A stretch of 56,640 nucleotides of DNA, filler included, from Sphacelaria rigidula (taxonomy: Eukaryota), in NCBI GenBank assembly GCA_964200075.2. It is 5 parts of 5 records of this genome, joined end to end, with 100 filler letters (N's around TTAATTAATTAA, not from the genome) between each part and the next. Parts side by side here need not be neighbours in the genome. Positions count along the whole stretch, not along the records: positions 1 to 11,249 come from CAXNAA020005170.1; positions 11,350 to 22,598 come from CAXNAA020005171.1; positions 22,699 to 33,946 come from CAXNAA020005172.1; positions 34,047 to 45,293 come from CAXNAA020005173.1; 1 more part is not named here. One strand, given 5' to 3'. Of the stretch, positions 8,955 to 45,293 are shown in pieces; within the stretch, counting starts at the first letter, position 1, and each line of letters starts with the position of its first letter. A program made the translations under genes and the position numbers. The notes beneath the pieces were generated by a model. The model saw only the letters and a program-made list of their open reading frames with translations. It made no database searches and was not told the origin of the DNA.

Positions 8955-9250
8955 TTTTTTTTTCCCCACACTTGGAACCCCTCCCCTTCCTCGGGATGAG
9001 TCCGTGGTCTCAAGGGATCAAGCCATCTCTCCCCCGGTACGTGCCTTGTATTTTGGTCTCGCGGATTGGGTCAGCACTCCCACACCGCGTCACACACATG
9101 CTCCGTCTCGAAAGGGATGCGTGGTCAATGGTCAAATGACTAAGGCAAGCAACAAATGAGTACGCCCCCCCCACACCGCGTCAACTCACGTCACACAAAC
9201 CCAGTCGACTAGTTTGTTAACTCACGTTCTCACGCTTTCCACGGTGGAAT
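8955..9250 (-). mobile_element. tRNA-derived SINE family B copy, interrupted by a LINE 3'-end insertion
   Basis: T-run (A-tail on minus strand) at 8955, then body aligning to the reverse complement of 11784-12090, split at 9093-9169. Confidence 0.85.
9093..9172 (+). mobile_element. Extremely 5'-truncated LINE 3' end with oligo-C tail and 14-bp TSD
   Basis: TGCTCCGTCTCGAAAGGGATGCGTGGTCAATGGTCAAATGACTAAGGCAAGCAACAAATGAGTACG-C8, flanked by CCCACACCGCGTCA at 9079-9092 and 9170-9183; homologous to 36487-36560. Confidence 0.85.
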
Positions 9251-11249
9251 TGTACGTCTACCCACCAGTTTTGCGGCCCATCTGTCTCCCTTTTGCGAAT
9301 TCGGGTCTTTGGAGGGTGTGTCGACGTTATTGATCAGCTCATAATTTTCAAAACAAGTGAGCAAGTCACGCATTGTGGAGGTACAGGTTCAGTCGTATCC
9401 TGGAGCACAGTTATTGGGGCGCCTGACCCCCCAAAATGGGCAAAAAAAGTGTCACCGACCAAAAGCACCAACAGACCGGTGATCTCGTTCATCCCCTGAT
9501 TATGCACGCCGTAAAACCCCCCAAAGTACTTGTGATTTGAGTGGGGTTTCCACTTGACGATTTCCCCTTTTCGTCGTCCCGGACTACGAACCACGGCGTG
9601 CCTAGGCTACTCACCGGCGTGTATTTGTCCAAGCTACAATCTGATACTATTGTGGAACCAAAGGAGTTACGGTGATCGAGAAAATCGCAAAGAAAAACAT
9701 GTTTTTTTCACTTTATTTGTTGTAAAACTCGAATCCCGATGAGATAAGAAAAATCGACCACCAGATTTGTAGCTGCCGTCTTGGCGCAGATGATGCGAAA
9801 AAACGCATCCCAATCGACCGCCTTGGCGATGAGTAATGGGAGCGACCGTTTTGGTTATGAGCGCCAACCAGCGCCTCCAACACTTGCCGGTTTCCACGAC
9901 ATGTGAAAACCTCACCACTGTCCAAGGGCCTCAGAATAGATGACACCCATGAATGACTCTTGATACTGCAGATGGTTGATACATCGCATGTGTGGAATGT
10001 TCGGTAGGTGTAGAATTTGAACCTTTGACCGAACCCCTTGAGGCTTCCGTGTCTGCGAGTATTTACCCCCATCTGTGCATCGCTTGTGATAGTGGCAAGA
10101 GTAGCGCTCGTTCTCCTGCACCCGGTGTCATCACCACGCCACCATCGATAGCGTAGCTTTGTATCTAATCTCACCTGGCGGCAAGTGTGGACAATCTCTG
10201 AACTGAAGGAGAAAATAAAGCCAGAGCAAGCTGGCGTTCAAGAAGAGAGAGCAGTATCCGCAATGGCAACACACTCCAACAGCCGTTATAGACATGATCA
10301 TGAGTCGCTCGCACGAAAGCAAGAGTCATCTTTGCGATCTTGCAGGAGCGAAGCGAACAAGTTATAAAACCAAACCTAACCCTAACCACAACAAAAGCAT
10401 ACCGAGAATCCTCGGGCAAGGCGGGTGCAACGTGTTCCCTAGGCGAAGTGTGCGTTGCCAGACCTCAAATCGTTGCCCCAGGCCCCGATTCAGACAAAAA
10501 CGCGTTGTGGGCACGCTAGGAGCATGCTAGAAGCACAGCTCCCATGGAAAGATCCGGATTTCGGTGTTCACAATGAAATCAAGATGGATCAACTCACCCT
10601 CCCGAATGGTCAACTATACTGCGTCAAGACGACACGGAAGACAGGATAAAGTCGTCAGCCCACTTTTGCTGAAGCCACATGGCACCGAAGCCTCATTCAT
10701 GTCTTTCAGTGCACCAACCCGTCCTAAGACACGCGTCCGTTGTATCGGCAGTGGTGGGTGACGGCCGACGGTTTGTTTTGATTCCCTCTTGGAACACGAT
10801 ATCCTAGAAGTCCGATAAAAATCATGCATATTCATGAAATGAAGAGACATACCCACGAAACAACAACGACGCTTGCACAGGGCGAGTCATTCATCCGCTA
10901 AAATTGTAGAACGATGGGATCCGATAAATCAAACTCCTCAGAGCATGACGAGGAACGCGAGGAAGTAGACCAACATCCGCCCAGCCTACATGACAAATCC
11001 GGCGACTGTACTCCACTCGTCTGTGTAAGGGCCGTCCTCGTCGAAGTTCATCAGTACATATGGTTCTGTCGCATATTGAGCATATGATTTTGCAAAAAAG
11101 ATGGTTCAGCGTTCCCGTTCCAGGCGTTGGGCTACAAATGTTCATGATTGATATTGCTTGGTTTGAGTGTGTACAACGAGAATCGGAATTCAAGTAGCAC
11201 TGACAATCCCGTGGGCTCCTCGTGTAAGCAGAACGTGTTTTCGTTGAAA

Positions 11250-11349
11250 NNNNNNNNNNNNNNNNNNNNNNNNNNNNNNNNNNNNNNNNNNNNTTAATTA
11301 ATTAANNNNNNNNNNNNNNNNNNNNNNNNNNNNNNNNNNNNNNNNNNNN
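11250..11349. other. Artificial 100-bp contig spacer
   Basis: N44 + TTAATTAATTAA (stops in all frames) + N44. Confidence 0.97.
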
Positions 11350-11459
11350 AGGCGCTTCATGCAACCTGAACCCGAACATCAGGCACTGTATGGCCATTTT
11401 TTTCGCGACACTTTTCGCTGGTTTTGGGGGGGGCTATCGTAATAAGAGTCCCCCCCATC

Positions 11460-11761
11460 AGACACCCATGAGGTAATGCAGCCCATGGCTGTCTCTGGAA
11501 GTGGCGACACCAGAAAACGGAGCAACTCATTGGAGGTTATCATCCACATGCAAGATCATTATTACGACTCGGACCGAACAATTTTTGCAGGATGCAGGTC
11601 ACCCCTCATGCGAATCGCCGAACACATCACGGCGCTTCGCGGTCGGTGATGGCGAACCTAGTCCGACGAAAACCCGAACCGCTCCGTGCTGGCTTTGTAG
11701 GGATGCGAGGTCAATGGTCTAATGACTAGCTCTATGTCACACAAGATCACGAGTACACCCC
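11460..11761 (+). mobile_element. C-tailed SINE-like family A
   Basis: GACACCCATGAGG...GGCTGTCTCTGGAAGTGGC...GCCGAACACATCACGGCGC...GGTCAATGGTC...GAGTACACCCC; homologous copies at 12870, 40890 (-), 45000 and 2163 (-). Confidence 0.85.
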
Positions 11762-11783
11762 GTCGATAGGTCTGCGCAGTCTC

Positions 11784-12143
11784 GCCGCCGCACCCCGGTG
11801 GTGTAATGGTCCGACTGCCGCCATTAGGGTGGAGAGAACGAGGGTTCGATTCTCGATGCTGCGTTGAGTTTTTTCTCCGTAGTATCTGATTTCCGCCGTG
11901 GAAAGCGTGAGGACATGAGTAAACAAAGTAGTCGACTGAGTTTGTTTGACGTGAATTGATGCGGTACGGGAGTGCTGATAGTCATCACCCAATCCGCGAG
12001 ACCAAAATGCAAGGCGTGTACTAGGGAGAGAGGGGTTGATCCCTTGAGACCACGGACTCATCCCGAGGAGGGGGGGGGGTTCAAAGTGTGAACAATATAG
12101 AAAATAATAATAAGAATGATAACAACAACAACAACAACAAATA
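11784..12143 (+). mobile_element. tRNA-derived SINE family B, near full length
   Basis: Pol III A-box-like TGGTGTAATGG and B-box GGTTCGATTC in the head, a conserved body ending GAGACCACGGACTC...GGGTTCAAAGTG, and an (AAT)n/(CAA)n tail. Confidence 0.85.
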
Positions 12144-12429
12144 AGTCCACGTTGTCTGTACTATTCACGTTGTGCACGTAGCCTACGTCGTGGACGTCGG
12201 AGTCTACCAGTGTTTTATATGTCTATTTGTCATGAGCTTACACCACATGTTCCTTTCGGAGAAATTTCCGACTGCTGTATCATAACATTACATATCCCTC
12301 AGCTTTCCTGCGGACTCACAAGCTATGTGACTTTGTCTGTGGCCTAGACTTGACAGCTGATGTTGTGTGAGTTGGTCTGAGGCCTGTACATACTTTAACA
12401 CCTTTTCCTTCGAGAAATCAAGTCGGCAC

Positions 12430-15400
12430 CTTCTTTGTTTTCTCCTCCGAAGCAGAAGCTTCGTCTAGCTGACGCTTCAGTCCTAACGCTCGTCGCTCAG
12501 TCGTCTTCAGTTTCGCTTCCGTGTTCTTCAATTTCCAACGGTACTGTATGGGAAACATTTCACCATTTTCCCCATAGTACAGGAACAAATAGCACAAAAT
12601 GGACGAAGCACGAAAATATGCGAGCGATGTGGTTTGAGTTCATATTTTTCTCTCTCCATCGATCGTGCTTTTTAACCCCCCATCGCACCCTGGTCCGGCG
12701 TAAACCCCGCGTGCTCTATCCCGTCTTTGTAGGGACGGACCCCTATGTTGGCGTCGGTTGGCAACCGTGCTGTTAAACACGCCACTCACTGCGTACGCCA
12801 GGCAGCCAGGTTACCGTCTTTTTGCGCGTGCTTGTGTTTTTTCGCGTGGTAATCATAATGATGGTCGAGCTAGATCATATTGTGCGGGGTTGGAGAACCT
12901 CAATTCCGCGCAAAGGGGATGGTCATACTACGTAGTGTTTAAATGGTGAGACACCCATGAGGTAGCGTGGGACGCCTGGCTGTCTCTGGAAGTGGCAACA
13001 CTACAAAATAAAGCAACTCATTCGAGGCTGCCATCCATATGCAAGATAATCAGTGCGTTTCGGGCCGAAGAATCTTAGCAGGATGCAGCCGACCCTTCAG
13101 AGACTCGCCGAACACATCACGGCGCTTCGCGCTTGGTGATTGATTGCGAGCCTGCTCCGGCGAAAACCCGGCATGCTCTGGCTTTGTAGGGATGCAAGGT
13201 CAATGGTCATATGCTTACGACATGCAAGATTGTGAGTACACCCGCACCCTCCGCACCCCCTCTTGTCGGGACGGAATCGTAGTCTCAAGGAATCAATCAT
13301 CTCTCCCCCCAGTACCTGCCTTGCGATATATTATCGAGCACTGGATGAACACCACGCCCGCATCCCTTTGACTGTCACCGTTTGTTTATGTGAACACATA
13401 TTTTCTCTCTTCCCATGACCGAAACTAGTGGAATAGGTCATCAATGTGTCAGAGTTACCCACAGATGGTGGGTAAACTCCCACCTTATCCAGGACTCTGG
13501 GCGCAGGACCTACAGCTTCGTACTCGGTGGGGTCCACGGGATGAGTGGTAAGTCTCGCGGATAGGACTTGGAAATCCATCGTGTCAGTCGAGTTATTTTT
13601 TCCATGGCCAACAAGTTGTAGGATTCGGAGGGTATATATTCCTCCACATGGTATCTTATGTTCGGTTCCGAACCTTCTGGGAACAGAGCTGGGAACGTTC
13701 ATGTAGAATTAAAGGAATTCGTATTTTGGAGATTTGGGAAGCACTTCAGCCGGTGTCAATGGATTGGAGCATGGATATGATAGCCAGGTGTGTAGCTTAT
13801 CGGCTTACGCTTTCCCTTCACGTAATCAGTCTTCCAGCCTTCCAGCTTTTCAGTCGCCTAGTTATCTGCTGGTCTCCTCTACTCAACCAACACGGAGTCT
13901 GCCTGAGTCTACAGTTTGATGGGTACGGTACACTAGCCGTATCGGTGTGTGTTGCGGCAGTCCTCTGTGAGCAATGTGTGGTTAATATGTAATGTTTGAT
14001 GCTGTGCCTTGCTACGGGTTCATTAGGGTTCATTATTGTGTTGTGAGCCCGTCGGTAGCCTATACTCATACAGGTTGCATCGGTAACTGAACACGAGGTA
14101 CTGTCAGTTTGGCCAAGATATATATATATACCCCCGTGGTCTTCACAGATACTGAGCAGAAGCGTTGGGTGGCTTGATAGTAAGCTACTATCTACGCATT
14201 AGAGCCTGCGATTTGACCACCAATTGCCCATGCATTAATAGCCGTGGATGCGGGTAGAGTATACCCAGAATCTTATATGTGTCCCTCTCATGTTGACCTC
14301 TACGACGTGCTATGCTTTTGTCGTTGTTGAGCCGAGGCTAGTCACGGGCGACTGAATGTTCATACCCGACCGCTCAAAAGTTTTGAGTCGATCATCGGTG
14401 CCAAATCGCAGTTTGACGGGATTCAGAGACGACATTCTCGCCTATTTTATGACCACAAAATGAGGAAGTACATCGGGCGCCACGTTTGAGACGCTCGAGA
14501 TGAGCACAGTAAAGCTGCTAGGTCTAGAGCCTATTATTCCGCCCGCATTGGCGGCCTGTCAAGTATCAGTTTGACCAGCGGGACGCTAAGAAACGAGCTG
14601 GTTTCGGGTGCCGTGACAGTCCCGGTTTTTGTTGTTCAAATGCATAGAGGCGGATTTTATAAGGGTCAGGAAGGAAATATCGACGACAAAAAATATGGTA
14701 TTGTCACAGTTCGCTGTACGCAGCAAAGCGGTGAGGCGTTACTCCGATACGCCCGAGGTAAAGCTAAAGCCTGTGGATAAGACGTTTCTCTGTTCCCCCG
14801 ATTCTCCTGCGTTGAATATATCACACGTATACGGCGTAATCGTGAAGGCAACAATCGATATTTCTCTGGATTTTCTCAAGCGTGAATCATACCTGAAGAC
14901 ACAACTGCACCGCCCTGTCTCTATCTTCCATCAACTCCACCAGTTTTGCCGGCAAGCACAAATCCGAATCCTCCTGCCCCCGTTGTCCCCGTCCAATCAT
15001 GGGTGCGCGCGGCAGACCACCTCCCCCGGGATCCAATGGCTCATTAGTTACCTTCCCCTGTAGTCCTTGAGCCGATGCGCTGGACTTCACTTCGGTATCC
15101 TTTCTGTTGTGCACTGTTTCGGCGTTTTGGTCGATGACGGTATCATTTTCAGTGAAGCTTCTCCCTTCCACCACTCCTTCTCTTTTCTGACGTGCCTCCC
15201 TCGCAGTTTTGTCATTAAGGCAGTAGGCACTGTTAGACGGAGGCGGCGCTGCTTTGCTCCGAGACGTCTTCAAACTGAGCGTCGCCTCAGACGGCTCTTG
15301 GTCACTCCCCTCGACTTCATGGCAGCCGTTACTAATGCGAGCGTCCTCCCGCTGTGCAGCACCACTTCTGCCGTTGTGATTTTCTTGTGCTGTCATCGTC

Positions 15401-15678
15401 TGACTGGGAGATTCAGAAGGCGTCCGGTCTCTGAGTGCGGTAGGTGAAACCAGCGCTCCATGTCGAGGATCTACTGAGCTTCTTGTTGAACTAGGAGGAG
15501 AAGAAATAGCGTCCAGCCTTATGGCATGGTCATCCGATCCCTGCAGGCCTAGTGCGGCCGGCACCGAGACAGGTCTTGGCAGATTTTCTGACTGAACAGC
15601 CAGCGAAGATTTCAGACCGTAAGTTGCCCGAGTACGCCGATCCATAGCTTGCCGTAGACCAGCAGAGGTCATCGCCAT
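12430..15678 (-). CDS. Uncharacterised protein, disordered N-terminus followed by coiled coil; 3'-partial
   Basis: Exon 1 15678-14893 (ATG, 262 codons, ends ...DRDRAVQLCLQ|GTATGA) splices in phase 0 to exon 12543-12430 (YRWKLKNTEAKLKTTERRALGLKRQLDEASASEEKTKK|GTGCCG). Downstream exons were not identified. Confidence 0.75.
12870..13260 (+). mobile_element. C-tailed SINE-like family A, one of the two longest copies (~390 bp)
   Basis: 5' extension GAGAACCTCAATTCCGCGCAAAGGGGATGGTCATACTACG is shared with 41200-41260 (-); ends GAGTACACCCGCACCCTCC. Confidence 0.85.
13400..14110 (-). pseudogene. Degenerate LTR-retrotransposon (Ty3/gypsy-like) integrase C-terminal remnant
   Basis: Frameshifted pieces RGPHRV / AVGP resemble the GPY/F motif, and TAAT...CRLRQTP resembles the end of the integrase core; many stops. 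Confidence 0.4.
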
Positions 15679-15962
15679 GACAGCTTGCTCTTATGCCCGC
15701 TCTGGGCTACGCCTTTCTCATTTTATTCTCTTTGTAGGGCGTCGATTGGCTATCGGTTGCGATCCCCGCTCGAGGCGGGTGATGATGTACAGTAGCGCCT
15801 TGAGCTGTATTCGGCGACGAAATCGATTGCCCCGCATGTTCCGTTTCGACGAGATCCGCATGAAAAACGACGGTTTCCAGCGGCGGAATAAGTGTTGTCC
15901 CACCCTGTGCCCACCGCACCTTGCTGCCGAACAACCTCCACGCGTCGGGTGCCGGCGATATA
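15679..15962. promoter_or_regulatory. Candidate bidirectional promoter / 5'UTR region
   Basis: 284 bp between the divergent start codons at 15678 (-) and 15963 (+). Confidence 0.55.
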
Positions 15963-18900
15963 ATGCTACCCGACAAAGAGGAGAAATCATGGTTGATTCT
16001 GCGAAATCCCACCGTCCCTCTAGTCCTGGGTGCGGGTGCTGCTTCATTGCGAAATCGTAAATTGCCGCCGCCAGAAGTACCGGTGGCGACAAGCGAAGCA
16101 TCGTTGTTGAACAACGTGACGGGTGATGTGCTGGCGGCCTTCGGAGCTTCGGCAGGTGTATCTCCCTTCATAACGATTGCTGACCGCGCCATTATCCAGG
16201 TAAATTTAGCCTTGCGATACAATTGTGCATATTGTCTTCGAGGTAAATGAATGTAGACGATATCGGTAGATAGCTGTCCGTGAGTTGCGAGTCCGTGCAG
16301 TTGGCACTGTCAGGGCATGTCGCGTACTGCAACAGACATTTTGTAGGCTTGGCATGCCTCGGGCGCAGCTCTTGCACAAAAATACCATGACACTAGCATT
16401 GTCTGTATAAAAAATATTTTCCTATTTTGTCACACATCACATAAATACGTACATTTTTGTCGGCGTGAGGATAGTTGTCCCGAATTCCAAAAACCGTGCC
16501 CCGTCTCCTGGAAGATACATTTTTTTCTTGTTCCTCGCCTCTTTTATTCCCAAATATCCATAACTCTTGTTCGCTGTTTCCTTGCGTATGTTTTTTTCGG
16601 GGGATGGGAGGGGATTTGACACAGAACTTGGAATCTTGGTATTTGACCGAGGGTTTTGCGTTATTTTGTCGAAGTTATTGAAAAACACGGATCTAAGAGG
16701 TAATCTTGTCAGCTTTTTAATGCAATGACCAACCACCTACTGATTTCAAAATAGAGAGCGGCGAACGCCTCCTCTCAATACCCCGAGGGGACCTTATTTC
16801 TTTCCCAGAAAAACAAAAAATCACGAGATATTATGCATTTTGTTTCCGTCAGTGAAATGCTTCACTCCTACACACACATACACGCACACACATCAGTGCT
16901 GTTGTGAGCGGCCACATGCGTTCTGGTGGGCCCACATGATGCCACGAGCAACGAAGAATGGAAGAATGCACGCAACAGGGGCGGCTACCTAACATGAGTA
17001 AAATTGCCATTTCGGGGCAATTTCGGGGTAATTTCAGCCCAAAATTTTGCGCCAGAAGAGAGAAAAACTCCGCGGCTACCGACGTAGCTCGATTCCCCCG
17101 TCACGACAGTTGTTCACATTTCAATTCGTTTTGTTTCGAAAGTCATCATGACTAGGAAACACACCGAAAAAATGGTCCTGCACACGGACATATACTTCGA
17201 CCTTTCAGGGACCGGACCTCACAACAACCAAGCAGCTTTTCACGATTTCGAAGGTGCTCGTAGGCGAATAATCAAACGATGACACGCCCGACTGTGTCCC
17301 CTCAAATATACGCTCACACTATAATATCCCTGTGTGCACATGGGAAGTAGGAGTACTATTGGTTGCCGTAAGATTCGCGTTGGCATTATCGCAGTTGAGC
17401 ATCTTCATCTCCTCGAAGCTTGTTCTCGAAGCGAGTCCGTCGTTAACTTATTTTACACTACTTGTGGGCGCGGTATGTCCAATAGAAGTACATGCATTAT
17501 CGAAAACTTGGTATATCTTATTCTAGCATAAGGAGCAATGCAGTGGTCAAATGAACCTTAGCTCAAAAAGCTTCCTGCAGGAGTGTTCTCCACTTCGAAG
17601 AATCACACGAGGCGCTTGTAGTCTCAGTCGCCCCTAATTATCTCTGTAATCCTTAGGAACCCTTTTGTTTGCCGTATGTTCTTGTCCCAATCCTCTGCCT
17701 CCCGTCCGATGAAGAATGCGAGCGGCGCCATGAAGCTCGGGGCCTCCATGAAGGCGGGATTCATTGAATTGCTGACCCGACCACATGCATTTATTAGCCG
17801 GCCGGAATTTCGGATTATCTTGGGGGTGTACTTCTCCACCTACGCGGTTGCCAACAGCATCACGAGCGGTGAGCTATGTAGGCCCACCAAGGACGTCATA
17901 TGTCGACCCGAACAAGCTGTATTGGACATTTGAAGAAGCGGAGGAAAAGGACAAAGATCTTATTTTGTTTTTGGCACTTCTTGAGAGTGCAGGCTTGGGT
18001 GATTACCGTGACCAACGGGATTATTCTCATCAACCATTGTTGCACTCGACGAACCAGTTGCTGCGCGCCAGCCAGCTCTAGAAAAAATCGTATCCCGCGA
18101 TTACGCACGCCATCTGTGCTTGCTACATGTATTCTGCACCTGCAACGACAACATTTCCTCAAGGACCTAGACCAAGGCATCGGTACCGACGACGTCTACG
18201 CTGCCATGCATCGCCTCTTTACTTGCCCAGTCTGCGTGAGGACGGCTTCGGATCCACTGTGGCCGCGATTTGCGGCTACTTCCGTCGTGAACGTTACTGC
18301 TTCGGTGGCCAAAGACGCCGCGTTTACTCGAATGTTCGGCACCAGCAAGGCCAAGCCGCTGCCTGTTTCGACACTCATGTTGTTCGCCGGTCGAGATTGC
18401 ATGACAATTGCGGCTAGGTAATAAGACCAAGGCTGCACGAGGAAAATACGTCTGTCTCTCAACCGAGTGTTTTTTCACCATATGTTGCATCAGCGGTGTA
18501 GAGAGCCATTTGTGCTATTAAAGTCCCCTTTCGGGGGTGGGCTCGAACGTGTGCTTTTCACCCGAACCTACTGTGACGAAATTCGCGCAGCTTTTGAGAC
18601 AGTCGAGTGCCTCACTGACACGTCCCGTGGAATACTCATGCGGAACAGGGGTGAATAGGATGCTACTGTACGGGGTATGCATGAATATCGGGTATGTACA
18701 GCCGAACATGGAGCATGTGCAGCTATATTTCCGTAGACACACAGTTTCAAAAGTGCGCCATGTAGTGAAATATCACGGTGGGGGGGAAGAGGCGCGGTAA
18801 AGATCACGGTGGGAGAAACACTATGGATTCAGTAAAAGCGAATTTCCGCGCAAAGCGTTTGTGCACCGTTTCATGTTTCTAAATATATAATGTTTCTTCA

Positions 18901-20378
18901 CGGTAAATGCTTACTATGAAAAGCGCAGTTTTAATATCGTACTGCATTGTCGTAGCTGGGAGTTCTAGTTGCATCAGACGTGTTCATCAGAACGTGAGAA
19001 CAGTCCTCGCCATTTAATGCTCGAGCGGCCCTCGGATCTACTTGTTAATGTGAATGGGTCACAACACTCCATCAGATACCACACCTATGAGTTACTGTTG
19101 GCTCACAGCATTGTGGTAGTGTGACGCCTCATACGCTCAACAGTCGTATATTTGAGATACACGCAATCAATTGGGGTGGTAAGAAGTGAATAATAAAGCA
19201 ACGGAGGCTGCACATCATGACTTCTGTGCCCTTCAAGGATCAGCGATTGGGTAGAGGGCAATCTGTGCCTGGAGTATAACAAGATGCGATGGGAGATAAT
19301 ACGTAAATCAACGCAGAATATGAACGACACTTCAGCCCATATGTCGAAGCACCCAGAAGCAACCTTGAGCAGCAACGAACACCCTTGACCTCATCCCCAC
19401 CTCCCGTCTCTCCTCTCGTACGTGACAGTTTTAACCTCCCTGCACCCACTTCACGGCTCCTTCAAGGCCTTGGGAGGGTGCCTGCACAAACGGCTGATGT
19501 AGCGGCACAGATGGCTTGTCCGCCCCTCATCCAGCTCTTGTCTACCCCCCTGTGTAAGTTCCTCTGTGCAGCAAGCGTCTATTAACCCTTTTGGGACCCA
19601 TAGCCGATATTTGCTTTCGTGAAAATCGACATCATTTCTAGTCATTTTCAAGTCAAAATGGTGCCGATCCACAAAAACAAAATATGGATTCCCAAAGGGT
19701 TGGTAGTACATGAGATCAAAATTGAGTTGAGTATTCTTCGACAGCCGCCCAAAGTTCGTGATGCCTCGTTTTTGTGCTATTCCACGTAAGAGCTCGCCCG
19801 GAGACGATTCTCTAGTACTAGCACCTCCGATATTACTTGAAACCCCGACGTGGTTCTGGGGATGGTACAAACATGCGAGTGAGGTGCGAAAGCGATACAT
19901 GAGGGTGTGCCTAGGGGTGACCGCAAAAATATGTTTCAGCCCGGACTGCAGAAAAGATATGTATCCACATTGTTCGGCTTCTCTGCAAGTGACATCCACA
20001 CACGTACGACGATGATACTAGCTGTGCCACCGTCCAATATATCACAAGTGTGGTGATCATCGGTATCCTGCAGTGGCCAAACACTGGACGAACGAAAGCC
20101 CGCAAAACCGCCGAGTCAGAACAAGCAATGCCTCCCCCCAGGTGTGTGTACATGATGCCGACAACCTGGTCGGTGTTTTTCCTTTTGATCGAGCAGATTT
20201 GTTGGGGCTGGACCTTTACAACAGACCAATCGCCGAGCTTCGTTCAAGGGTGGCCTTCGTCGGACGGGAATACTGGGCCACGGTGTTCGCGCGGTGGGCA
20301 AGGGTGGCGCCTGCATACTCTATTGGCGGGGTGGTCAATCAGATCCTCATTCGAAATTTCAGGTCTATGGGGCTATGA
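15963..20378 (+). CDS. Conserved uncharacterised eukaryotic membrane-type protein (~294 aa), complete 5-exon model
   Basis: Exons 15963-16199, 17715-17868, 18231-18417, 19429-19553 and 20197-20378, all GT-AG with phases 0/1/2/1, total 885 nt. Motifs SPFITIADRAIIQNASG, GVYFSTYAVAN, KDAAFTRMFG, LFAGRDCMTIAASF, QLLSTPLYLLGLDLYNRP and RVAPAYSIGGVVN recall a family seen in fungi and protists. Confidence 0.9.
19586..19699. mobile_element. piggyBac-type palindromic MITE (~115 bp), copy 1
   Basis: TTAA-CCCTTTTGGGACCCAT...ATGGATTCCCAAAGGG-TT; homologous to 31528-31645. Confidence 0.75.
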
Positions 20379-22698: not shown

Positions 22699-22714
22699 TT
22701 CACTTCAGCATAAA

Positions 22715-34046: not shown

Positions 34047-34192
34047 GTTGTTTACGCTATACTGCCATCGCAATTTCCTCATGTCTCTGTTTGTTTTTAG
34101 TGAGTACATTCCCAACTCTGCTCTCTTATGATTCAGGGGGGAGGGGGAGGTAAATACGCAAACACTACGCATGTAGCTTTGAGAAGGAACGA

Positions 34193-34268
34193 AGGAGAAG
34201 GAGAGAGAGAGAAAGAGGGAGAGAGAGGGAGAGAGAGGGAGAGAGAGAGAGGGAGAGAGAGAGAGAGA
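34193..34268. repeat. (GA)n-rich microsatellite
   Basis: Imperfect GA/GGGA repeat. Confidence 0.9.
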
Positions 34269-35072: not shown

Positions 35073-35150
35073 ACGGAATATTCTTATATGTATATACGAA
35101 TAGTAGACAGCGATATATGAATACACAAGCAACACGTGAAACGTTCTGAC

Positions 35151-36824
35151 CTGATAGGCCGCCCATCGATTTCGATGTTGCGCTACCGAGCTCATCTTGG
35201 CGAGCCTGGGTGCGGTCGCACGAGCCATGGCGACAATTTGAAGTGCGAGTTGCTTGTCGTCTTCTTGCTCCTCTTCGAGGCGCATCAGCTCGCGCATCTG
35301 TGTGATCACAGCACGCCACCATAACGGCAAGGAGAGTAACGGACCAAGAGAGTTGTTTTCAAGAAGCACCACACGTACATTGAGAAGCCTTTTCTCGACA
35401 TTTCTGGGGTTCTGCGACCCCTGTCCCTCACACCGTTTCCACGCAACGGTTTCCACCACGACCGGGTATACAACCAGTTGAGTATGACCCCACCGGAAGA
35501 TAAAGCTCTCCACAGGGAGTTATCTGCCTTTCACGTTTTGCTACTATGCAGTAGTACGCAGAAGGAACGCTCGAGACACACTTCCGTCAGCTGCTGACGA
35601 ATGGCGACGCATGACAGGGTTGAGAGCAAGGGGGAGCACAGCCAAGCAAACCGCGGAGGGGTTGAGGGAGAGGGTCTAGCCTCCTTCCTGCTCACGAGAG
35701 GTTTTTTGTTTCTCATCTTTGTGTTTTCTCGTGCATGTCTCTCGCCGACGACAGAAGTGGAATGAGAAAACAATTACCCATAGTCTAGATAGGGTGGCGG
35801 GAAAAGAGTATTTTCTGAACGTGGGCAGCGCCAGCACGATCAGGAACAAAGGAACCTCGCAAATTATCGTCCCAGGTCCAACCTGCAGGCTATCCAAGGA
35901 AAATGTAAACCGCACGTGTAAACAGTGTCTACAGAACGTTCCCGATGGCGGGTGGGTGGCGATCACGAGCTATATTTGCCAAGAATATCTCTGTTACAAG
36001 CATGATAATCACCCCCTCCCCTGCTGCCAGGATGAGATAAGGGATAAGGATTAAAACGTATCGGCACTGGCCAACGGACTACGCGAAGTAGTTGAAGGTG
36101 CGATTTCGGGTGGGGAACCTGGACCTGCCAGAGAGAGGAAAGAGGTATGCCAGTAGTCGTGTGGAGGAGAAAGTAGATGCACAGAATTGCCTCTGCGGCG
36201 AAGCAGTAGGAAGTAGAACTCATATAGTGGCAGGATAGGGACTAAACAAGGACGAGCGAGACGTGTTAGAGGGGGAAATGTGGGATTTAAACAAAGGTGA
36301 CACGAAATCGTTTTGGTATATTAGACAGTAGCAAGAAAACGATCGCTATACTAGGAGATGGGCGGTGGCCACAGACGGCGAAACAGGAAGGGCCAAAGAT
36401 ATGTAAAGTGGTTTTGTGTATTGCATGAAAGAACAGCAATGAACGCCCAAATGTTGGAGATGTGTCCCTATTAGGAGAAGGGACGGTGCTCCGTCTCGAA
36501 AGGGATGCGTAATCAACGGTCAACCGACTGAGGCAAGGAACATGTGAGTACGCCCTCCCCCCTCGGCCGCCGTAATCACTCACGCATCTTTCCTCCGTAA
36601 GCATGAGGCCGCTCTCGCGAGTCTTGGTATCCCTTTCAGCGCGATACAGCTGGGCGCACATGTCACCCTCTGCCTCCATGCCGACTCGCTCCGCCTGTTG
36701 CGCGGCCCGGTCTAACTGCCACACCTGTGTTGATAGAATGCAACAAGATTCATGCAATCACGCCATCTTCTTGCAATCAGTGGCCTGGTGATAAACCAGG
36801 TTCCCTGCCCCGACTCGTGAAACA

Positions 36825-36874
<50 letters not shown>

Positions 36875-39800
36875 TGCGTGTGTGTGTGTGGAGGTTACGT
36901 CACATCGAAGCACGTAGTGTGGGGAGCACGGAGGGGTCTTATATTTTCTTCTCGCCTGGTACCATAGTTTGACGATTCTTCAGTTCGTTCATTACCCACT
37001 GTCGAAAAACACCCCACGCGAGCCATCGCTCTACTTGCCCTCGTACATGTGGTGACACGTTTGAAGAAGTGCCGTTTCTTTCTCTCGAGAGATTACCAAA
37101 CCTGAGGTTGTAACTGCGACCACGCGTGCACCCGCGACAAGACCACGACTCAGGGTTGTAAAGCAACAAACGGTCAAGGGTTGAGTTTTGATGCAATTAT
37201 GATTTGATTAGGTAATCATATACAACATTTCTGCTGACTGTTGATCAAAAATAAAAGAGGATCAATCATTTGATTATTTGGGTAAGTGAAAGAGACGTTT
37301 TGTTCTACATTTGTGGTGCCTCCTGATTTGATTCATTTATTCGACGCTTCTCATCCTCCGCCCATGTCTACCGGCATTTGTGACGTATGTATGCGGCTGT
37401 AATGCACAATATGTATGTTAAGGGCGTGCGTGTGTGACGGGGCATGGGCTGGGTAATGAAAGTACAAGCGCATTGAGGCAGCCGGAGCCTTGATCTGCTA
37501 ATATTGTTTCCAAAATAATAAAAATTACGGTCAGTTGATTTCATCAAGTCATCAACCCTAGTTGATGATGATCAACTGATCACGATTAAATCAACTCGAC
37601 TAAAGACCAAATAATTAACAATCAAATCAACGCGAATACTGCGTTGATGTACAACCTTACTACGAATAAGCGTTACGTCTACGGGCAAGACGGTATCAAG
37701 ACAAGACTCCCACGCAAAAAATAAGACCGGCAGCATGCCGTGGAAAAAGTATTGAAATGTATTTCATTTGATCCGTGGAAGGTCACTATGACAGGCACGA
37801 GTGGGAATGTTCAGAACAGTACGAAGCTGGGGGTAAGCGCACTTGATACCTCCACATACCCTTCTGCAATACCACCCTCCCCTCCCCTCCTCCTCTACCT
37901 CCGTTGAAAACAAACACACGCAGCGGTATTTTCTCTTTATGAAACAACATCAAGCATTTCAAATACTACAAACATATCTACGACAAAACAAGCGCCCACG
38001 GGTGGGTGTGGCGCGGTGGGTTGGTGGGTTGGTGCATTGTTTGGTGCATTGTTTGGTGGGGGTGGGACTGTGCCCTTCGGTTTAAGCGTTTGGTGGGTAA
38101 GTGGGTAAAGATCTGTGTGACTCACACGTTTAACAACGGGAGACGCAAAAAAATGCAAATCTACAGGCAAACTGGGGGTCAAATTTTACCATACATCTGG
38201 GGGGTTCTACAGTGCAACCTTGTTTGCACGACATATATTTGCCACCTGGCGTGAGAAACGTAATATGAGACACGAACGCATCTCCCCCGTATGGAGAAAA
38301 CGAATGTGGAAACCCCTTCGGAATATTCGTAGGTGCCCGCTCTGCGTATGGTGGGCTTACGGCTGTTGTCACTACTGGCTGCGTGGTGTGTTGGTTTGGT
38401 ACGCTTTCCCTGCTTGGGCCTGGAGAGCTGCTGGTCCTGCTATTTGCCCTTGGAGACCGCAAATACACAGTGTGGGAAAAGCGTGACAATGCGGCTAGCT
38501 GTTGGTGTTGCTGCACTTGCTTGTCAGGCTACGTGGGATCCTACTCGTGATTCTAACGATGACTTTTTCGATTTTGCACAGTACATTTACGACGATCTCT
38601 TCCGAGAGCATCTCGGCGGCAAATCGCACCCACAACGCTCTTGCATCCCACGACCCAGAGGGGTTAGAACCCCGATGTTAACACACAGTTCTTGCACCAC
38701 CTCTTTGCATACAAGTAAAGAAACTTGCAGGGCGCGGATTCACGATGCCAGCTGATGAAGACAACTATGCGACGCTCGTGAGATATACCGGTGATGGTAA
38801 CGGCGGGTCCCACGCGTTCCCCAATCGTGCACTGCTCTATCTGGGCCGGGTGCACTATATAACCATGCCCCCTTGGGTGTGTCGTGACTGTGTGTACTAT
38901 AGCCGCCCGCTACATGTATGATCGTGTGCTGCTAGCATGTCCTGGTGATGCGGCTGCGGTGGGTTGCAATATATTTCTGTTGCGCGTGCGCATCATGAGT
39001 GCCGTTCTGAATATCGTCTTCAAAAACAATAAAACGGCCACCAGGCGCAGCGCACATATATAACAGTGCACGCTTAGACTACCACTACAGCAACAACGGC
39101 GCGCTGTGTTCTCGACAAAGAGAGGCACGCCACCTGACCATGTCCCCGTGGGTCTGTCTTGAGACCCTGTGTACCGTTTCCTTCCGCTACATACATAATC
39201 GTGTGCTGTTGGCATGTCCCAGGGATGTAGCTGCCGGGGGTTACGATACATTTCTGTCGAGTTTGCATTGTGTATGCTGCACGGGCAGGGTCACACTGCA
39301 GTATGCAGGGCTAAGAAGAGCCTACTGGCGCTGTTCCTCGTCATTCCGGATGTTTGCCTGGAGGGTGAAGAGGAGACGACTGACTTCCCGAAGGAAGCCC
39401 TTCAGCCGCATGCTGATGCCATCGAGGCCTTCTGGGAGATACATGAACGGGCACCTGTGACTGTAGCGGTGGTCGCGGGAATGGGAAGGGTTGTATCGCA
39501 GGCCACTGTATGGGACTCGGGAGTAGAGTATTCAGTCTCGGACGGATGGCCGGAGAGTAGCTCTTGACCTTCGCGTTTGCCCACGCCGGAAAGGTGGTGG
39601 GTGGGTAACAGATGTGGCACTTCGACTGCTATCTAATGGTGGTAAGTCGGTTGTCTAATGGTGGGTGGGTGGGTGGGTGGGTGGGTGAGTGGTTTGAGCT
39701 GGGTGGGTGGGGGGGTGGTGTAGTGTGGGTCGAGTGCGTGCTGGGGGGGTGGTGCGTGGTATGATTGGTGCTCAACGTTCTGTTGGCACAAGACGTCTGA

Positions 39801-42800
39801 ACTCAAATTCGAGACGCACGTCGCCTGGCGAGCCGCCAGCTCTCGTTGATTGGACACTTTTTCATCATGACCGGAGATTGGTTGACTTCCTCTTCGCCCC
39901 AACGAGGCACCAACATACCGTATTCGCTTCGCGCTTGGTGATTGATTGCGAGCCTGGTCCGGGTCAAATTCATGTATACCTACTCCAATTTGTTTTTTAT
40001 AAGCTTCACATTACTGGTAAATTGATGCATACCTACTCCAAAATAAATTAATAATATGTCTGTGTCACAGCACTTCACGATGAATAGGTATTTTTCTTTC
40101 CAGAAAGACATGAAACGTTTGATTTTCTCTCCCGGCATTCTTGATTGGTGTAGTTTCGGACGACTATGCATGCACGAGTGCGAAGTGAATGCAAAGGCAG
40201 AAATGTACTTTGAAGTATACATCATCCTACGACATAAACTATTAGCCTATCTCGTCAGCAATCAATCAACATCGTCATCACCTTCTCAACGGGAATCGAC
40301 ATTCTTGCAGCAGGCCGACAGAACGGGAGGGTGACGACCAACATCTGGTCTTCCTCGCGGTAACTGGCAACCGTTGCCCATCCGATCGGCGTCATGACTT
40401 GACTGTCTCTCCTGGTGTAGTAAAACAGATCTATCTCGTGAGTCAACATGAGGTGATCTGCGGCAACATATCATGCGCAGTTTCAAACGCGGAATGCGGT
40501 GCAGAGGGGGGAGGGTGTGTGTGTGCTCAAGAGGAGGGATCGAGGGAAGGCGTACTCATTTGTTGCTTGCCTCAGTCGTTTTATCATTGACCGCGTATCC
40601 TTTTCGAGAGGGAGCACCATTCCTACTCCTCAGAGAGACATACCCAACACCTGGGCGCTCATTATGTTTCTTCCATACATAACACAAAACTATTTCACGT
40701 ATCTTACTCCCTTCCTGTTTCGCCGTGTTTGGCCACTATCCATCTCCTATTGTGGTGATCGCTTTCTCGCTACTTTTCATGCCATATTTCTCTTTCGAAC
40801 ACTTCCAGTTCCTCCTTGTGTCGTTCACGTTCTCCCACTTTATGAAATATACTCTCTAGTGTGTTGCCACAGCGGCGTAGGAGGGCGCGCGGGGGGTGTA
40901 CTCATGATTCTGCACCCGTAGCCGTAAAACGGTAGACCGCGCACCCCCACAAAGCCGGGACGGAGCACGACGGGTTTTCGCCGGACCAGGCTCGCAGTAA
41001 CCAAGCGCAAAGGGCCATGATGTGTTCGGCGATTCGCATAAAGGTCGAACTGCATCCTGCTAAAATTGTTCGGCCCGAAGCGTACTGATTGTCGTGCATT
41101 CAGATGACAGCCTCCAAGGAGTTGCTTCGTTTTCCGGTATCACCGCTTCCAGAGACAGCCATGGGTGACACTACCTCATGGATATCTCGCAGTATGAACA
41201 CTCCGTAGTATGGTCATCCCGTTTGCGCAGAGCTGAGGTTCTCTTCCTAGCACAGTATGACCTGACTGAACAAAACCTGGGTTCATGAAGAACAACTACT
41301 ACATGGAACACGCCACCTACCCTGCTCGTGCTTTTCCCTGTTTTCCTTCACCACTGCCAAGCGTTTCTCCATATCCGCGATCCTCTTCTCGCATCGCATT
41401 TTGTGAAGGAGCACTTCTCTCAGCTGCTCTGTCGTATCCCTCAGTCTGGCAATTGATTGTTCCATGAGAAATTCCTGAGGCCGAGGGGAGCACGGTTGCG
41501 ATGATTAAAAACAGGGGTCTGGACAGCGATGACAAAGCTGAGCATCACCATCAACTTGAACTGACTGGGTGAGTCGATTTCTCAGTAAAACCGGACAAGA
41601 ATGCTCGCAGGTTACGTGGCACTTCTGATTCCGTAGTCTCAAACGATAACCGCATAGAGTATTTGTGCTTTATGTTGAAACGGGGGGTCAAAAACTTTTT
41701 TTTCGAGTGCAGTATGGGGTAAGAGGGACAGAGTCGTTTAGGTCACGCACCGTCGATTCAGGGTGCCCGTGAAATTCGGTCGAACGGTCAGGAACACAAC
41801 GCTCATCTGCATGAGGGAGATGAGAATCAAGTGGTACCCTGCGGGAACACATACTACGGTCGTTCGATCGTAGATTTTCCGCAGCTTTGACGCAAAAACA
41901 AAACCATTTTCCTCATGTTTCACAACTCTGTTCATTCACGCGATCCAGTCTTGATCGTGACTGCTGCACGACAACGAGTACCCACATGTACAAATTGAAC
42001 TAGAACCGAATGTATTTACGCAAAACGTTAACCCCTGGCTTTTGCAGCATAGTATGACAAGTTGAGTACATGTTGATCGGAAGCAAAAAACGTGAACGCG
42101 GATAATAAGATCACGGAAACAATTAGCCTTCAATGGGAAAGTCAAACAATAATGGCTATGAAAAAGTCAAAGTACAAGGATCCTATACGTATGTCTCCCA
42201 ACAAATTCCGTGGGACCAGTCGGCAAGATTTTAGCACGGATTTCTCTTCCACCCTCAATAGCCATTAACGCACCGAACGCTTCACTCGTATCATACGTGG
42301 TCAGGGAAAACGCAGTGACCCGCGAGTAAACCGGTCAGGCGGTATCGCCTGTACAGATAAGTTACTACAGTAGCTGTCGTCGTGTACCGGCGTTCACCTC
42401 CTCGACGGGTATACAGGACCCCAAACGGAAATGTCCAACAGAACGTTCACACCGACCTGCCCGGCAAAATTCATTTCCGCCTCCGTGAGGTCGCGCGTGA
42501 CCTGGGCAAGCACATCCACCCAGTGTCGATGCCTGCGATCAGCATCTTTTCGTATTTCCAGCATCCGCTCACATTCTCCCAACTCTGTTTCTGCTCGCGA
42601 AACAACCAACTCCAGGGCGGGGATGTCGCTGTGAGCCCTCTGGAGGATCTGGTATTTTTTACATGAAACATAATAAACAATAATAGTATAAATTGCCTCC
42701 GCCGCGACCCGGTGGTGTTATGGTCAGCCTGTCGTCGTTAGGGTGGAGAGAACGAGGGTTCGATTCCCGATGCGTTGGGGTTATTTGTTCGTAATATCTG

Positions 42801-44003
42801 ATTTCCACCGTAGGAAGCGGGAGGATGTGAGTAAACAAAATCTTCGACTGGGTTTAGTTGACCGTTGGCGACGCGGTGTGGCAGTGGTGATAGTCATGAC
42901 CCAATCCGCGAGACGAAAATACAAGGCGCGTACCGGGGGAGAGATGAGTTAATCCCTTGAGACCACGTACTCCTCACGAGGAAGGGAACGAGTTCACAGT
43001 GCGACAAGTGAAAAAAAAAAAAAGCAGATGCATTCTTTCTGATGTAGGGCTCATAGCTATTATACACACAGCGGCGTAGCAGGGCAAACGTTGTACTGCC
43101 GCCGGTGTGAAGGTAACAAAAGACACCAGCTTTATCCACTGGGTGTTTGAAAGACATGACGGTAGCTTCCGACATCGCCGCATCATCGCTTTACTGTGCA
43201 GCAGGTCTACGCCCAAGCGTCAAAGGTACAGGACACAGGCGGTTGATGACAGAGGTCGAGTACGCACACACCGAAACAGGTGGCTGGCGCGTACCACGAC
43301 TGTACTGAAACGCCTGCGAACCGATGTTACGACGCGATACTCGCAGGATAGGTCGTCAGTCTGATTGTAAATGACCTTTGACTACGCACTATTTGTCTGA
43401 ACTACGGTGCTAGGTTTCCTTCAGTCCCCAAAACTCTCAGGTCGTGTCTTCTTACCGAGATGAGAACAAACCATCACGTATCGAAAAAAAAGCAAGGATT
43501 TTATATGTCAACATAATAGAACTTCACAAGGCTTTGATGATGCCTTGCTCGTGATTGCAAATACTTTTTATTCTATTTTTTGAAATCGCCAAATCATTCA
43601 AGAGAAATTCAGCAAAGCGATCGCTTACTTCGTTTTGCCGTTTGTGGTAAACGGAGAGCACAACCATTCAATGGTGAATTGAAAAAAAGGTATTCGCATA
43701 TCATCCATTGCTGGCTCACGATCGACGCGACTGCGCTATGGCAATCGCGTTTCTTTCGCATAGCGTACCTGACGATACTCCACTCGATCATGCGTCTGCT
43801 CTCTCCGTAATTTTTGCAGCTCAGAAATACGAAGGTGGCTGATATTGATGCGATTGAACAGGGACAGGATGTCGAGGAAGCGAGCTTTGCGTCGCCCATC
43901 ATACGTGCGGTAGGTGAGCGGTCCGGCCCTTGTAGCGTTGTCATACCACGCCATCATGACGGTCTTCATTTCCTTCGCTTCCACATCTCCCTCGGCCTCG
44001 CGT
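35151..44003 (-). CDS. Uncharacterised coiled-coil protein with SH3-like VxTPxGxxxV motif; partial, 6 exons
   Basis: Exons 44003-43769, 42648-42457, 41474-41317, 40411-40282, 36724-36584 and 35297-35151. All are AG/GT-bounded with compatible phases (0,0,2,0,0), giving a continuous E/R/K-rich helical protein containing QVMTPIGWATVASYREEDQMLVVTLPF. Confidence 0.85.
36035..36563 (+). pseudogene. 5'-truncated LINE: decayed C-terminal zinc-knuckle region and C-rich tail
   Basis: IKTY..DYAK*LKVRFRVGNLDLPER..QNCLCGEAVGSRTHIVAG*..ERDVLEGEM..ILGDGRWPQTAKQ..GAPSRKGC; ends GAGTACGCCCTCCCCCC. Confidence 0.8.
36828..36890. repeat. (GT)n microsatellite
   Basis: More than 25 GT units. Confidence 0.95.
37151..37659. 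mobile_element. hAT-type MITE with AATCA/TGATT subterminal motifs
   Basis: TIR CAGGGTTGTA / TACAACCTTA; decayed 8-bp TSD CCACGACT / CTACGAAT. Confidence 0.7.
40890..41262 (-). mobile_element. C-tailed SINE-like family A
   Basis: Reverse complement aligns with 12870-13245 and ends GAATCATGAGTACACCCCCC. Confidence 0.85.
42699..43023 (+). mobile_element. tRNA-derived SINE family B with poly-A tail
   Basis: GGTGGTGTTATGG A-box, GGTTCGATTCCC B-box, conserved body, A13 tail. Confidence 0.88.
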
Positions 44004-44631
44004 CTTTTGTTGTTGTGAAAGAGAAAAGGGAAAAAAATGGCATGTGAGCGAAACACATATATCCTGCCCGCCCTCCTCCTTACCCGGTATCAGACGTGAG
44101 CGTCCAGAACAGTAACATACAGGTTCCTGTCACGTTTTGTATTTTGCCGCATTGTGCTAGTGCTGTACCGCGTCACAATGTTGTGGTGTGAAGCGACTAC
44201 GTGTGTACGTGCTGTAGGTACGTGTCAGTTTCAAGTGTTCAGCCTATTCGCTTCAGTTTTCAGCTCGTGTGTGCTGTTCCAGCCGCCACCGGTGAGTAGA
44301 CGGCGCGAAAAACCCGTTGGTTTATCAATACACTCAGTCTACGCAACGAAATCCTCTGAATCTCCCCAAAAGTCGACCAAGTCCTGGTAATTCACACCTG
44401 TACTGAATATTGACATCTTGTGAAAAGGTGATGAGCGCTTGACGGACGCTTGTGGAAGTTTTCCATTTCACGTGGGAGTATCCACATATACCTCGATCAT
44501 GCGGAGCCCCGTACCCCCCGCATTTCACTCCGTTACAAACCACCCACGCAGTGCGCCACCAACGCCNNNNNNNNNNCGCTGTTGGTGGTTTTTTCTTTTC
44601 TCCGGGGGTGCCCCCACACCCCCCCCCCCCT

Positions 44632-44666
<35 letters not shown>

Positions 44667-44699
44667 CCGAATCCTTTTCTAACCCCCCTTCATGGATCA

Positions 44700-44975
44700 A
44701 GTACAGTGACAGGGAAGACTCGGATCGTATGCAACACAGCAACAAAGTGGTGGGATAAGAAATTAAAAGAGGCTATAAGAGCAAGGAGAGAGGGTCACGC
44801 AAAATAAACACGTAGTGAAACTACGGTTCAGTGGGAGGAGTATGCTGAAGCTAGAGAAGACGTAAAAGTATGGTGGGAAATGAAAAAAAGGGAACGTGGA
44901 AGATGAAGTGAATAAAGCAAATGAAGACTTTGATGGCGGGATGAAGCAAATGTGCGTAGGTATAAAAGGGTAAAG
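44700..44975 (+). pseudogene. LINE ORF fragment (region between endonuclease and RT)
   Basis: IVCNTATKWWDKKLKEAIRARREGHAK...WEEYAEARE...NEDFDGGMKQM; the WW motif followed by a helical linker is typical of APE-type LINEs. Confidence 0.65.
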
Positions 44976-44999
44976 GAAGGAGTACTCAGCAAGCGTATG

Positions 45000-45293
45000 G
45001 TGAGACACCCATGACGCAGTGTATAAGCCATGGCTGTCTCTGAAAGTGGCGATCCCAAATGATAAAGCAGCTCATTGGAGGCTGTCATCTAAATGCAAGA
45101 TAATCAGTAGGCTTCGGGCCGAACAATCTTAGCAGGGTGCAGCTCACCCTTCATGCGACTCGCCGAACACACCACGGCGCTGGATGATTGAGTGCGAGCC
45201 TGTTCCGGCGAAAATCCGGCGTGCTCCGTCTCGGCATTATGGGGATGCGAGGTCAATGGTCTGATGACTATGGCATGCATGATCATGAGTACC
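45000..45293 (+). mobile_element. C-tailed SINE-like family A (cut by contig end at the tail)
   Basis: GAGACACCCATGA...GGTCAATGGTCTGATGACTATGGCATGCATGATCATGAGTACC. Confidence 0.85.

Follow-up and report, generated by a model that had tools for sequence, protein, structure and literature searches.

We analysed a 56,640-nt stretch of DNA from the brown alga Sphacelaria rigidula (hereafter the window), in which a short 3′-terminal module followed by a run of C residues is shared between fragments of a long interspersed nuclear element (LINE) and a non-coding repeat that we refer to as family A. The window consists of five pieces (positions 1–11249, 11350–22598, 22699–33946, 34047–45293, and 45394–56640) joined by linkers of the form N44-TTAATTAATTAA-N44. 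Its G+C content is 43–54%, and the longest stop-to-stop frame has 267 amino acids (aa), so that no intact transposon gene is present there. Copies of the module, which is approximately 70–75 nt long, were located by self-BLAST, by alignment of the ends, and with an nhmmer profile. Eight copies were found on three of the pieces, five belonging to family A and three to LINE 3′ fragments. The E-values of the tails range from 1e-7 to 1e-18 in pairwise BLAST and from 8e-16 to 3e-23 with nhmmer, and the likeness among the copies is not due to chance.

Two of the family A copies are near full length (~370 nt): one at 12872–13243 (+ strand), which ends in GAGTACA and CCC followed by C-rich sequence, and one at 40891–41263 (−), which ends in GAGTACA and C6 and has the most diverged tail. 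The copy at 11460–11761 (+) shows strong homology from 11460, directly after a C7 run, and ends in GAGTACA and C4, while the copy at 44997–45293 (+) is cut by the end of the fourth piece one base past GAGTAC. The fifth, at 2163–2284 (−), is a 5′-truncated fragment of ~105 nt plus C16, with CCCGCCGCC before its 5′ junction. The three LINE tails are a 77-nt tail-only copy at 9093–9169 (+), which runs from TGCTCCG to GAGTACG and contains a hairpin at 9129–9142; a 5′-truncated 3′ fragment of 534 nt at 36030–36562 (+), which is 77.5% identical to the LINE contig L150 described below and ends in GAGTACG CCCTCCCCCC; and a 5′-truncated 3′ fragment of 323 nt at 40549–40871 (−), whose start lies ~20 nt beyond the C tail of the 40891–41263 family A copy. 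Truncated copies of these sizes (77, 323, and 534 nt) are as found in LINE retroposition.

All copies in the window end in GAGTA(C/A)(A/G), and C or C-rich sequence follows in 7 of the 7 copies whose 3′ flank is visible, the copy near 45000 being the one that is cut; the pure C runs measure 8, 4, 3, 3, 6, 2, and 16. An initial annotation of this DNA had proposed a common 3′ end followed by C-rich sequence, in five family A copies (near 2163, 11460, 12870, 40890, and 45000) and two LINE 3′ ends (9093 and 36035) spread over three contigs, with varying 5′ ends and a more diverged tail in the 40890 copy. Self-BLAST, alignment, and nhmmer recovered all five family A copies and agreed with the other particulars, except that the number of LINE ends rises to three with the fragment at 40549–40871 (−), which had been missed.

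Because the window holds no open LINE frame, the identity of the LINE rests on contigs from elsewhere. Scanning metagenome contigs with an 18-nt pattern returned 119 stretches, of which one (L067) was real and the rest were chance matches, and a first scan of genome contigs returned 42 stretches, of which two (L147 and L150) were real. In L067 the module forms the end of a 1253-aa open frame, whose product is here called P0001, and in L150 the frame measures 1382 aa from stop to stop, with no second frame of at least 150 aa on its strand. A reverse transcriptase (RT) domain (RVT_1, PF00078) was recognized at residues 634–883 of P0001 (E 7.7e-33), and an apurinic/apyrimidinic endonuclease (APE) domain lies N-terminal to it, matched by Exo_endo_phos (PF03372) at residues 64–285 (E 3.1e-11) and by PF14529 (E 9.2e-07). 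About 250 residues separate APE and RT, and a C-x-C-x9-H-x4-C motif follows the RT. The nearest solved structures are the RTs of R2 (E 2.5e-22) and of L1 ORF2p (E 3.6e-21). A search with P0001 found 213 homologues at E up to 1e-3; one of these, P0003, is 73% identical to it and has the same C-terminal peptide, and the cluster of P0003 (at least 90% identity) includes proteins of Ectocarpus sp. CCAP 1310/34 and Ectocarpus sp. 4. A look-up in the ESM Atlas returned only unnamed APE+RT clusters that carry no clade information, a scan of viral contigs with P0001 gave no match, and a Pfam search with the ten longest frames of the window gave no transposon domain and one JmjC-like match. Since the tail continues upstream into an APE+RT frame in both L067 and L150, the LINE reading of the initial annotation is borne out, and the element is an APE-type, apparently single-ORF (open reading frame) LINE of brown algae. 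No long terminal repeats or terminal inverted repeats accompany the LINE copies, which show target-site duplication and 5′ truncation.

The shared tail is mostly coding sequence rather than 3′ untranslated region (UTR). The module comprises, in order, the last ~22 codons of the LINE (peptide ...GCVVNG...), a hairpin with a 5-bp stem and a 4-nt loop, then the terminal box TGAGTAC(G/A), and finally a variable C run. In both L067 and L150 the sequence reads ...AAC AAA TGA GTACG (C)n, and since the stop codon TGA thus sits within the terminal box, the 3′ UTR of the LINE amounts to only ~5 nt plus (C)n.

Remnants of the same LINE body occur elsewhere in the window. The fragment at 36030–36562 matches P0001 residues 1084–1252, and an internal fragment of the open frame at 44698–44970 (+), corresponding to residues 390–481, lies upstream of the family A copy at 44997, with ~27 nt between the two. 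BLAST and tblastn comparisons of the LINE with the window also detected a fragment cut by the start of the first piece (1–71, −) and two fragments cut by piece ends (33889–33946, +, and 34047–34125, −). Four piece ends therefore fall inside LINE or family A copies (1–71, 33889–33946, 34047–34125, and 44997–45293), a pattern that points to breaks of the assembly within such repeats.

Family A is ~370 nt long, with a common 5′ end marked by the copies at 12872 and 41263, is non-coding in that it has no long frame, and shares only its last ~70–75 nt with the LINE. Its copies are 75–80% alike by self-BLAST, and a sixth copy lies outside the window in L147. The hairpin and the box are retained, and the tail read in the LINE frame gives GCEVNG, which resembles the C-termini CEVNG and GCEVDG of the LINE homologues P0012 and P0027. 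No sign of an RNA polymerase III (pol III) head or of an origin from a small RNA was found in family A with Rfam, with ARAGORN (no tRNA), or by eye (no A or B box), although a promoter could still be present, and BLAST detected no similarity between the 5′ part of family A and the initial 1 kb of the L150 element. The proposed pairing of a LINE with a short interspersed nuclear element (SINE) therefore stands as far as the shared 3′ module and the non-autonomous partner are concerned: family A is short, non-coding, and equipped with a 3′ tail that the LINE has as well. In the strict sense, with no small-RNA head or pol III box found, the term SINE applies to it only loosely.

The most informative insertion is the one at 9093, which interrupts a member of a second repeat, family B (8955–9249, −), whose head is tRNA-like and whose tail is A-rich. 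In the self-BLAST comparison, empty sites are provided by three further copies of family B, at 11784–12091 (+), 34755–35073 (+), and 42699–43004 (+), and the 77-nt insert is absent from all three. It is flanked by a perfect 14-bp target-site duplication, CCCACACCGCGTCA, with the 5′ copy at 9079–9092 (+) and the 3′ copy at 9170–9183 (+), the first three C of the latter merging with the C run of the element. The insert consists of 6–7 extra bases at the 5′ junction, the module, and 5 C that are absent from the target; in other words, 8 C follow the module where the empty site supplies only 3. Over 74 nt this copy shows 100% identity with both intact LINE tails, that of L067 and that of L150. The duplication starts with CCC, as expected if a bottom-strand ...GGG-3′ end paired with a C-ended RNA. 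Target-site duplications had been suggested as a check on the initial annotation, and the 9093 copy passes it cleanly, while the other copies are ambiguous: the candidates are short or imperfect at 11460 (7 nt, CCCC(A/G)TC) and at 2284 (the C-rich CCCGCCGCC), and at 36030 two compete, a C-rich 16–19-mer and TAATCAC.

Family B itself is ~310 nt long. Its head looks tRNA-like by eye (GGTGTAATGG ... GGTTCGATTC) and was not called by ARAGORN or Rfam; its A-rich tail indicates that an A-tailed system coexists with the C-tailed one. Copies of family A or of the LINE tail are located in or beside family B three times (at 9093, at 11761/11784, and, as judged by eye, from 13243 onward).

Across the copies in and outside the window the C run measures 8, 8, 13, 9+T+9, 16, 6, 4, 3, 3, and 2, with C8 and C13 in the intact LINEs, and none of the 11 tails with a visible 3′ flank ends in A. 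The 3′ ends were also surveyed genome-wide by aligning to L150, at a likeness of at least 85%, the Logan contigs of four sequencing runs that contain the window (X1, X3, and X5 of one study, and X4 of a second one). The L150 element lies on the minus strand, with its C13 run at 95–107. In all four runs the contigs diverge from the reference just past the C run, leaving loose ends at L150 positions 95–97 (1420, 378, and 350 records in X1, 671 and 285 in X3, 1407 and 390 in X4, and 193 in X5). Their consensus runs on for 12–16 further G on the plus strand, that is, C in the sense of the element, and then dissolves; the agreement there is 0.35–0.48, which indicates many different flanks. No A run follows the C run in the loose-end consensus of any of the four runs. 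Together with the 5 extra C at 9093, these contig ends confirm that the element carries oligo-C in place of poly-A, and the C run belongs to the element.

The same contigs point to a great excess of the tail itself. In X1 the word depth adds up to 4.4 million over L150 positions 1–176, 1.0 million over 177–352, and mostly 0.02–0.47 million over the LINE body, where one bin is near zero, so that the tail lies four-fold to forty-fold or more above the rest of L150, with the reservation, which counts against any strong use of these figures, that depths of Logan contigs are not copy numbers. The best-supported joints in X1 lead from L150 171–175 back to 95–101, spanning 73–81 nt, with 5–29 contigs per row, and indicate head-to-tail arrays of a ~77-nt tail unit with C runs in between. 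At position 173 a further loose end (378 records in X1 and 315 in X3) corresponds to a long stretch of C immediately preceding the unit. The 5′ end of the unit is thus rather sharp, and the 9093 copy begins at this very base. As a separate observation, an inverted and diverged copy of the tail module lies at L150 4745–4800 (−), ~500 nt upstream of the LINE frame. It contains GGTGCTCCGTCTC and ATTGACC but no hairpin. This copy, the sole example of its kind, sits where the repeat depth drops (bins 4577–4928), likely the 5′ end of the LINE, and could be a chance neighbour or a part of that end.

A profile search of genome contigs detected 32 loci, most of them in one large assembly that is filed as a bacterial metagenome-assembled genome (MAG) and is evidently eukaryotic; these encode relatives with 31–58% amino-acid identity. 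Twenty-four copies of the 3′ module of these relatives were found. They keep GTGGTCAATGG, the hairpin, GGCAGCA, and ACATGAGTA, and their stop codon is likewise the TGA of the box, but their terminal repeat is (ATT)n or (TATT)n and varies in length. Some of them lie between clean target-site duplications, of 13 and 15 bp. The same box and hairpin thus occur with (ATT)n in the relatives, which marks the C tail as a lineage-specific swap of the terminal repeat. In one full-length relative (L168, ~5424–5440) five extra G stand between the duplication and the 5′ end, a sign of untemplated or cap-derived addition at the 5′ junction in this group of LINEs. Eukaryotic LINEs in contigs filed under bacterial or archaeal MAGs were observed repeatedly (L147, L150, and L163–L193). 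L147 and L150 are clearly algal despite being filed in this way, and the "bacterial" assembly, with contigs of 0.09–2.8 Mb and dozens of LINE copies, is very likely a eukaryote or heavily contaminated.

The relatives also allowed the hairpin to be assessed in an alignment of 25 tails from the two lineages. The inner two pairs of the 5-bp stem change on both sides: pair 21–28 is CG in 8 tails, UA in 7, and UG in 4, and pair 22–27 is GC in 11, CG in 7, AU in 1, and UG in 1. Over the 11 pairs tested, 90.1% of the cells are paired, compared with 25–52% when the partner is slid, and the covariation score was reached by none of 500 shuffles. As judged from these alignments, the stem-loop near the 3′ end appears to be kept by compensatory change, with few independent events. 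At the protein level a script matched the C-terminal motif in 18 of 120 homologues, 16 of which were true by eye and have it 4–8 residues ahead of the stop; the preceding stretch of ~50 residues varies. The lack of conservation of the tail peptide beyond GCVVNG fits a constraint acting on the RNA. Rfam, including its ribozymes, gave nothing over the tail and family A at the gathering score or at E up to 1, and on L150 60–300 at E up to 10 it gave two matches at chance level only.

We propose, with a probability of approximately 0.8, that the genome harbours a single-ORF APE LINE family together with a ~370-nt non-autonomous partner, family A, that carries the same oligo-C-ended 3′ module. The mechanism is likely to resemble that of stringent-type LINEs. 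By this analogy, the RT would recognize the hairpin and the box on its own RNA or, in trans, on the RNA of family A, and the endonuclease would nick the bottom strand at targets with C as the first base of the top strand. The ...GGG-3′ end released in this way would then pair with the oligo-C end of the RNA and prime reverse transcription, and the resulting copies would be 5′-truncated and flanked by target-site duplications of ~14 bp with C at their start. We consider priming on G/C tracts likely, and we infer that recognition in trans and a templated C run are part of the process as well. The C run would play the role that (ATT)n, (TTG)n, or poly-A has in other LINEs, with its length varying by slippage.

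Besides the reservation on contig depths, several observations weigh against this proposal. The covariation in the hairpin derives mainly from two lineages and hence from few independent events; folds of single tails are not more stable than those of shuffled sequences (z from −1.15 to +1.54), and RNAalifold applied to 10 brown-algal tails yields only −3.9 kcal/mol, the covariation becoming visible only once the second lineage is added. The tails of family A differ from those of the LINE by an indel of 5–6 nt, an indel of 1 nt, and ~20% substitutions; because of these indels the direct parent of family A is probably another LINE subfamily. The clean target-site duplication at 9093 is the single one among the copies in the window. 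The C bias at targets that the initial annotation expected is seen in the CCC start at 9093 and in the 5 of 8 copies with at least 6 C in the 12 nt before the 5′ junction, compared with 6.3% of window positions, a comparison in which both the measure of C content and the junction positions were picked after viewing the data; it is not seen in the three longest family A copies (12872, 41263, and 44997), which are near full length and have no recognizable duplication or C-rich 5′ flank.

Two alternatives concern the origin of the C run. It might belong to the target only, with the element ending at GAGTAC(G/A) and the endonuclease preferring C-rich sites. In the old copies the C run can indeed be assigned wholly to a candidate duplication (CCCC(A/G)TC at 11460, the 16–19-mer at 36030, and CCCGCCGCC at 2284), yet at 9093 there are 8 C where the empty site has 3, the intact LINEs carry C8 and C13, and the loose ends in many hundreds of contigs per run extend 12–16 C beyond the C13 of the reference, which makes this explanation very improbable. 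Somewhat less remote, and in our view still improbable, is a C run that lies outside the RNA of the element because the RT adds untemplated G at the nick or because the RNA is C-tailed after transcription. The variation of the run from 2 to 16 or more between nearly identical tails would fit such a process, as would the (ATT)n that follows the same box in the relatives, which shows the repeat to be separable from the recognition module, and the extra bases at 5′ junctions (6–7 nt at 9093 and GGGGG in L168) indicate that untemplated addition does occur in the group. However, the varying length follows just as well from slippage on a templated repeat, which according to a 2013 review is documented for other repeat-tailed LINEs (PMC3747384). 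The C of the 9093 target are located exactly where pairing with a C-ended RNA would need them.

A further alternative concerns family A alone, which might be an old chimeric or recombinant retrocopy that carries the tail of another subfamily and that spread long ago or by other means. The likeness of only 75–80% among its copies, the want of clean duplications, the indels that separate its tail from all four LINE-type tails compared, and the failure of the searches described above to find a pol III head are all compatible with such a history. Against it, a common box and C run terminate all five copies in 56 kb as well as the further copy in L147, the copy at 2163–2284 is 5′-truncated with C16 as target-primed reverse transcription predicts, the hairpin and the box have been kept, and C-termini similar to GCEVNG exist among LINE homologues. 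We consider an old retrocopy unlikely and retain the interpretation of family A as a partner of the LINE family.

A broader and more speculative extension of the LINE and family A proposal, which we regard as doubtful, combines three ideas. The terminal repeat may act as a swappable "address label", such that the change from (ATT)n to (C)n, with the hairpin and the TGAGTA box retained, moved the targets to C/G tracts, including the element's own tails. The 66-nt module plus C run may constitute a minimal retroposon and the most abundant mobile unit of the genome. Its discrete 5′ end at TGCTCCG might arise through RNA processing or a fixed stop of the enzyme, and the units could form head-to-tail arrays and seed many G/C tracts. 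This reading has thin but real support from the joints spanning 73–81 nt, the C run before position 173, the depth of the tail, and the start of the 9093 copy.

LINE-dependent non-autonomous elements have been reported in brown algae. The main text of a 2025 study of Ectocarpus in Genome Biology lists LINEs of the CRE, RTE, RTE-X, and Unknown clades and describes non-autonomous elements, present in abundance, whose 3′ ends are shared with RTE-X LINEs, among them RTEX-N1_Ec32 (~600 bp), which is paired with RTEX-1/RTEX-2_Ec32 and for which the authors express the same reservation about the strict use of the term SINE (PMC12477816). As presented there, RTEX-N1 resembles family A in its brown-algal host, its LINE-shared 3′ end, a 5′ region of unknown origin, and frequent 5′ truncation, and differs in length (~600 bp compared to ~370 nt). 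The partnership itself is therefore not new as a kind, whereas that main text gives no terminal sequences and mentions no C tail (PMC12477816). Both the LINE and family A are probably already contained in the Ectocarpus repeat library without having been discussed.

The 2013 review counts 58 SINE/LINE pairs and covers stringent-type ones such as eel UnaL2/UnaSINE1 with (TGTAA)n and the tobacco TS SINE with an RTE-clade LINE ending in (TTG)n, and its lists of 3′ repeats comprise poly-A, poly-T (in SINEs only), (TTG)n, (TTGATG)n, (CA)n, (CAA)n, (CCAT)n, (ATT)n, (TAA)n, and others (PMC3747384). (C)n does not appear in those lists (PMC3747384), and text searches, noisy and hence weak evidence of absence, found none either. 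The system described here is like the stringent pairs covered by the review in its shared tail of ~70–100 nt, the stem-loop near the end, the variable terminal repeat, the 5′-truncated copies, and the target-site duplications. It is unlike them in that the repeat unit is a single base, C, the shared tail consists almost entirely of coding sequence, and the terminal box contains the stop codon.

In mammals, the relaxed, poly-A-dependent L1/Alu system uses a homopolymer that pairs at the nick, and the duplication begins with the tail base. The pairing of a homopolymer tail with a complementary homopolymer that we propose is similar, but the homopolymer is C and a conserved module shared by both partners lies upstream of it, which indicates that recognition is probably not by the homopolymer alone. 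RTE-type LINEs, in the description attributed to Malik and Eickbush (1998), reportedly have a single ORF with APE and RT; their 3′ UTRs are described as very short and composed of AT-rich short repeats, and the 3′ end of that ORF is said to be taken over by SINEs. The (ATT)n-tailed relatives fit this picture. The present element resembles RTE-type LINEs in its one ORF, its 3′ UTR of 5 nt plus repeat, its non-A tail, and a passenger that is built on the end of the ORF. It departs from the RTE description in its longer frame (~1360 aa), in the ~250 residues between APE and RT, and in the C-x-C-x9-H-x4-C motif after the RT.

The uncommon feature is thus the homopolymer C tail of the LINE and its partner. 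The (C)n LINE and its (ATT)n relatives, which have the same module, form a natural pair for separating the contributions of the terminal repeat to the start of reverse transcription and to the choice of target. Each of the many insertions leaves a G/C tract in the genome, and assemblies break in the C-tailed copies, four of the piece ends in the window being located inside them. The coding end of such a LINE is also easily taken for a 3′ UTR.

Three further features of the window were observed. A tandem repeat with a period of ~145–170 nt occupies 52226–52762 (79–87% identity by self-BLAST), and a repeat of ~125 nt at 19582–19701 and 31524–31649 matches itself in both orientations in the self-BLAST comparison, which makes it palindromic and similar to a miniature inverted-repeat transposable element. 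At 4274–4756 (+) an open frame with a JmjC match (PF08007, E 5.8e-10) is probably an exon of a host gene.

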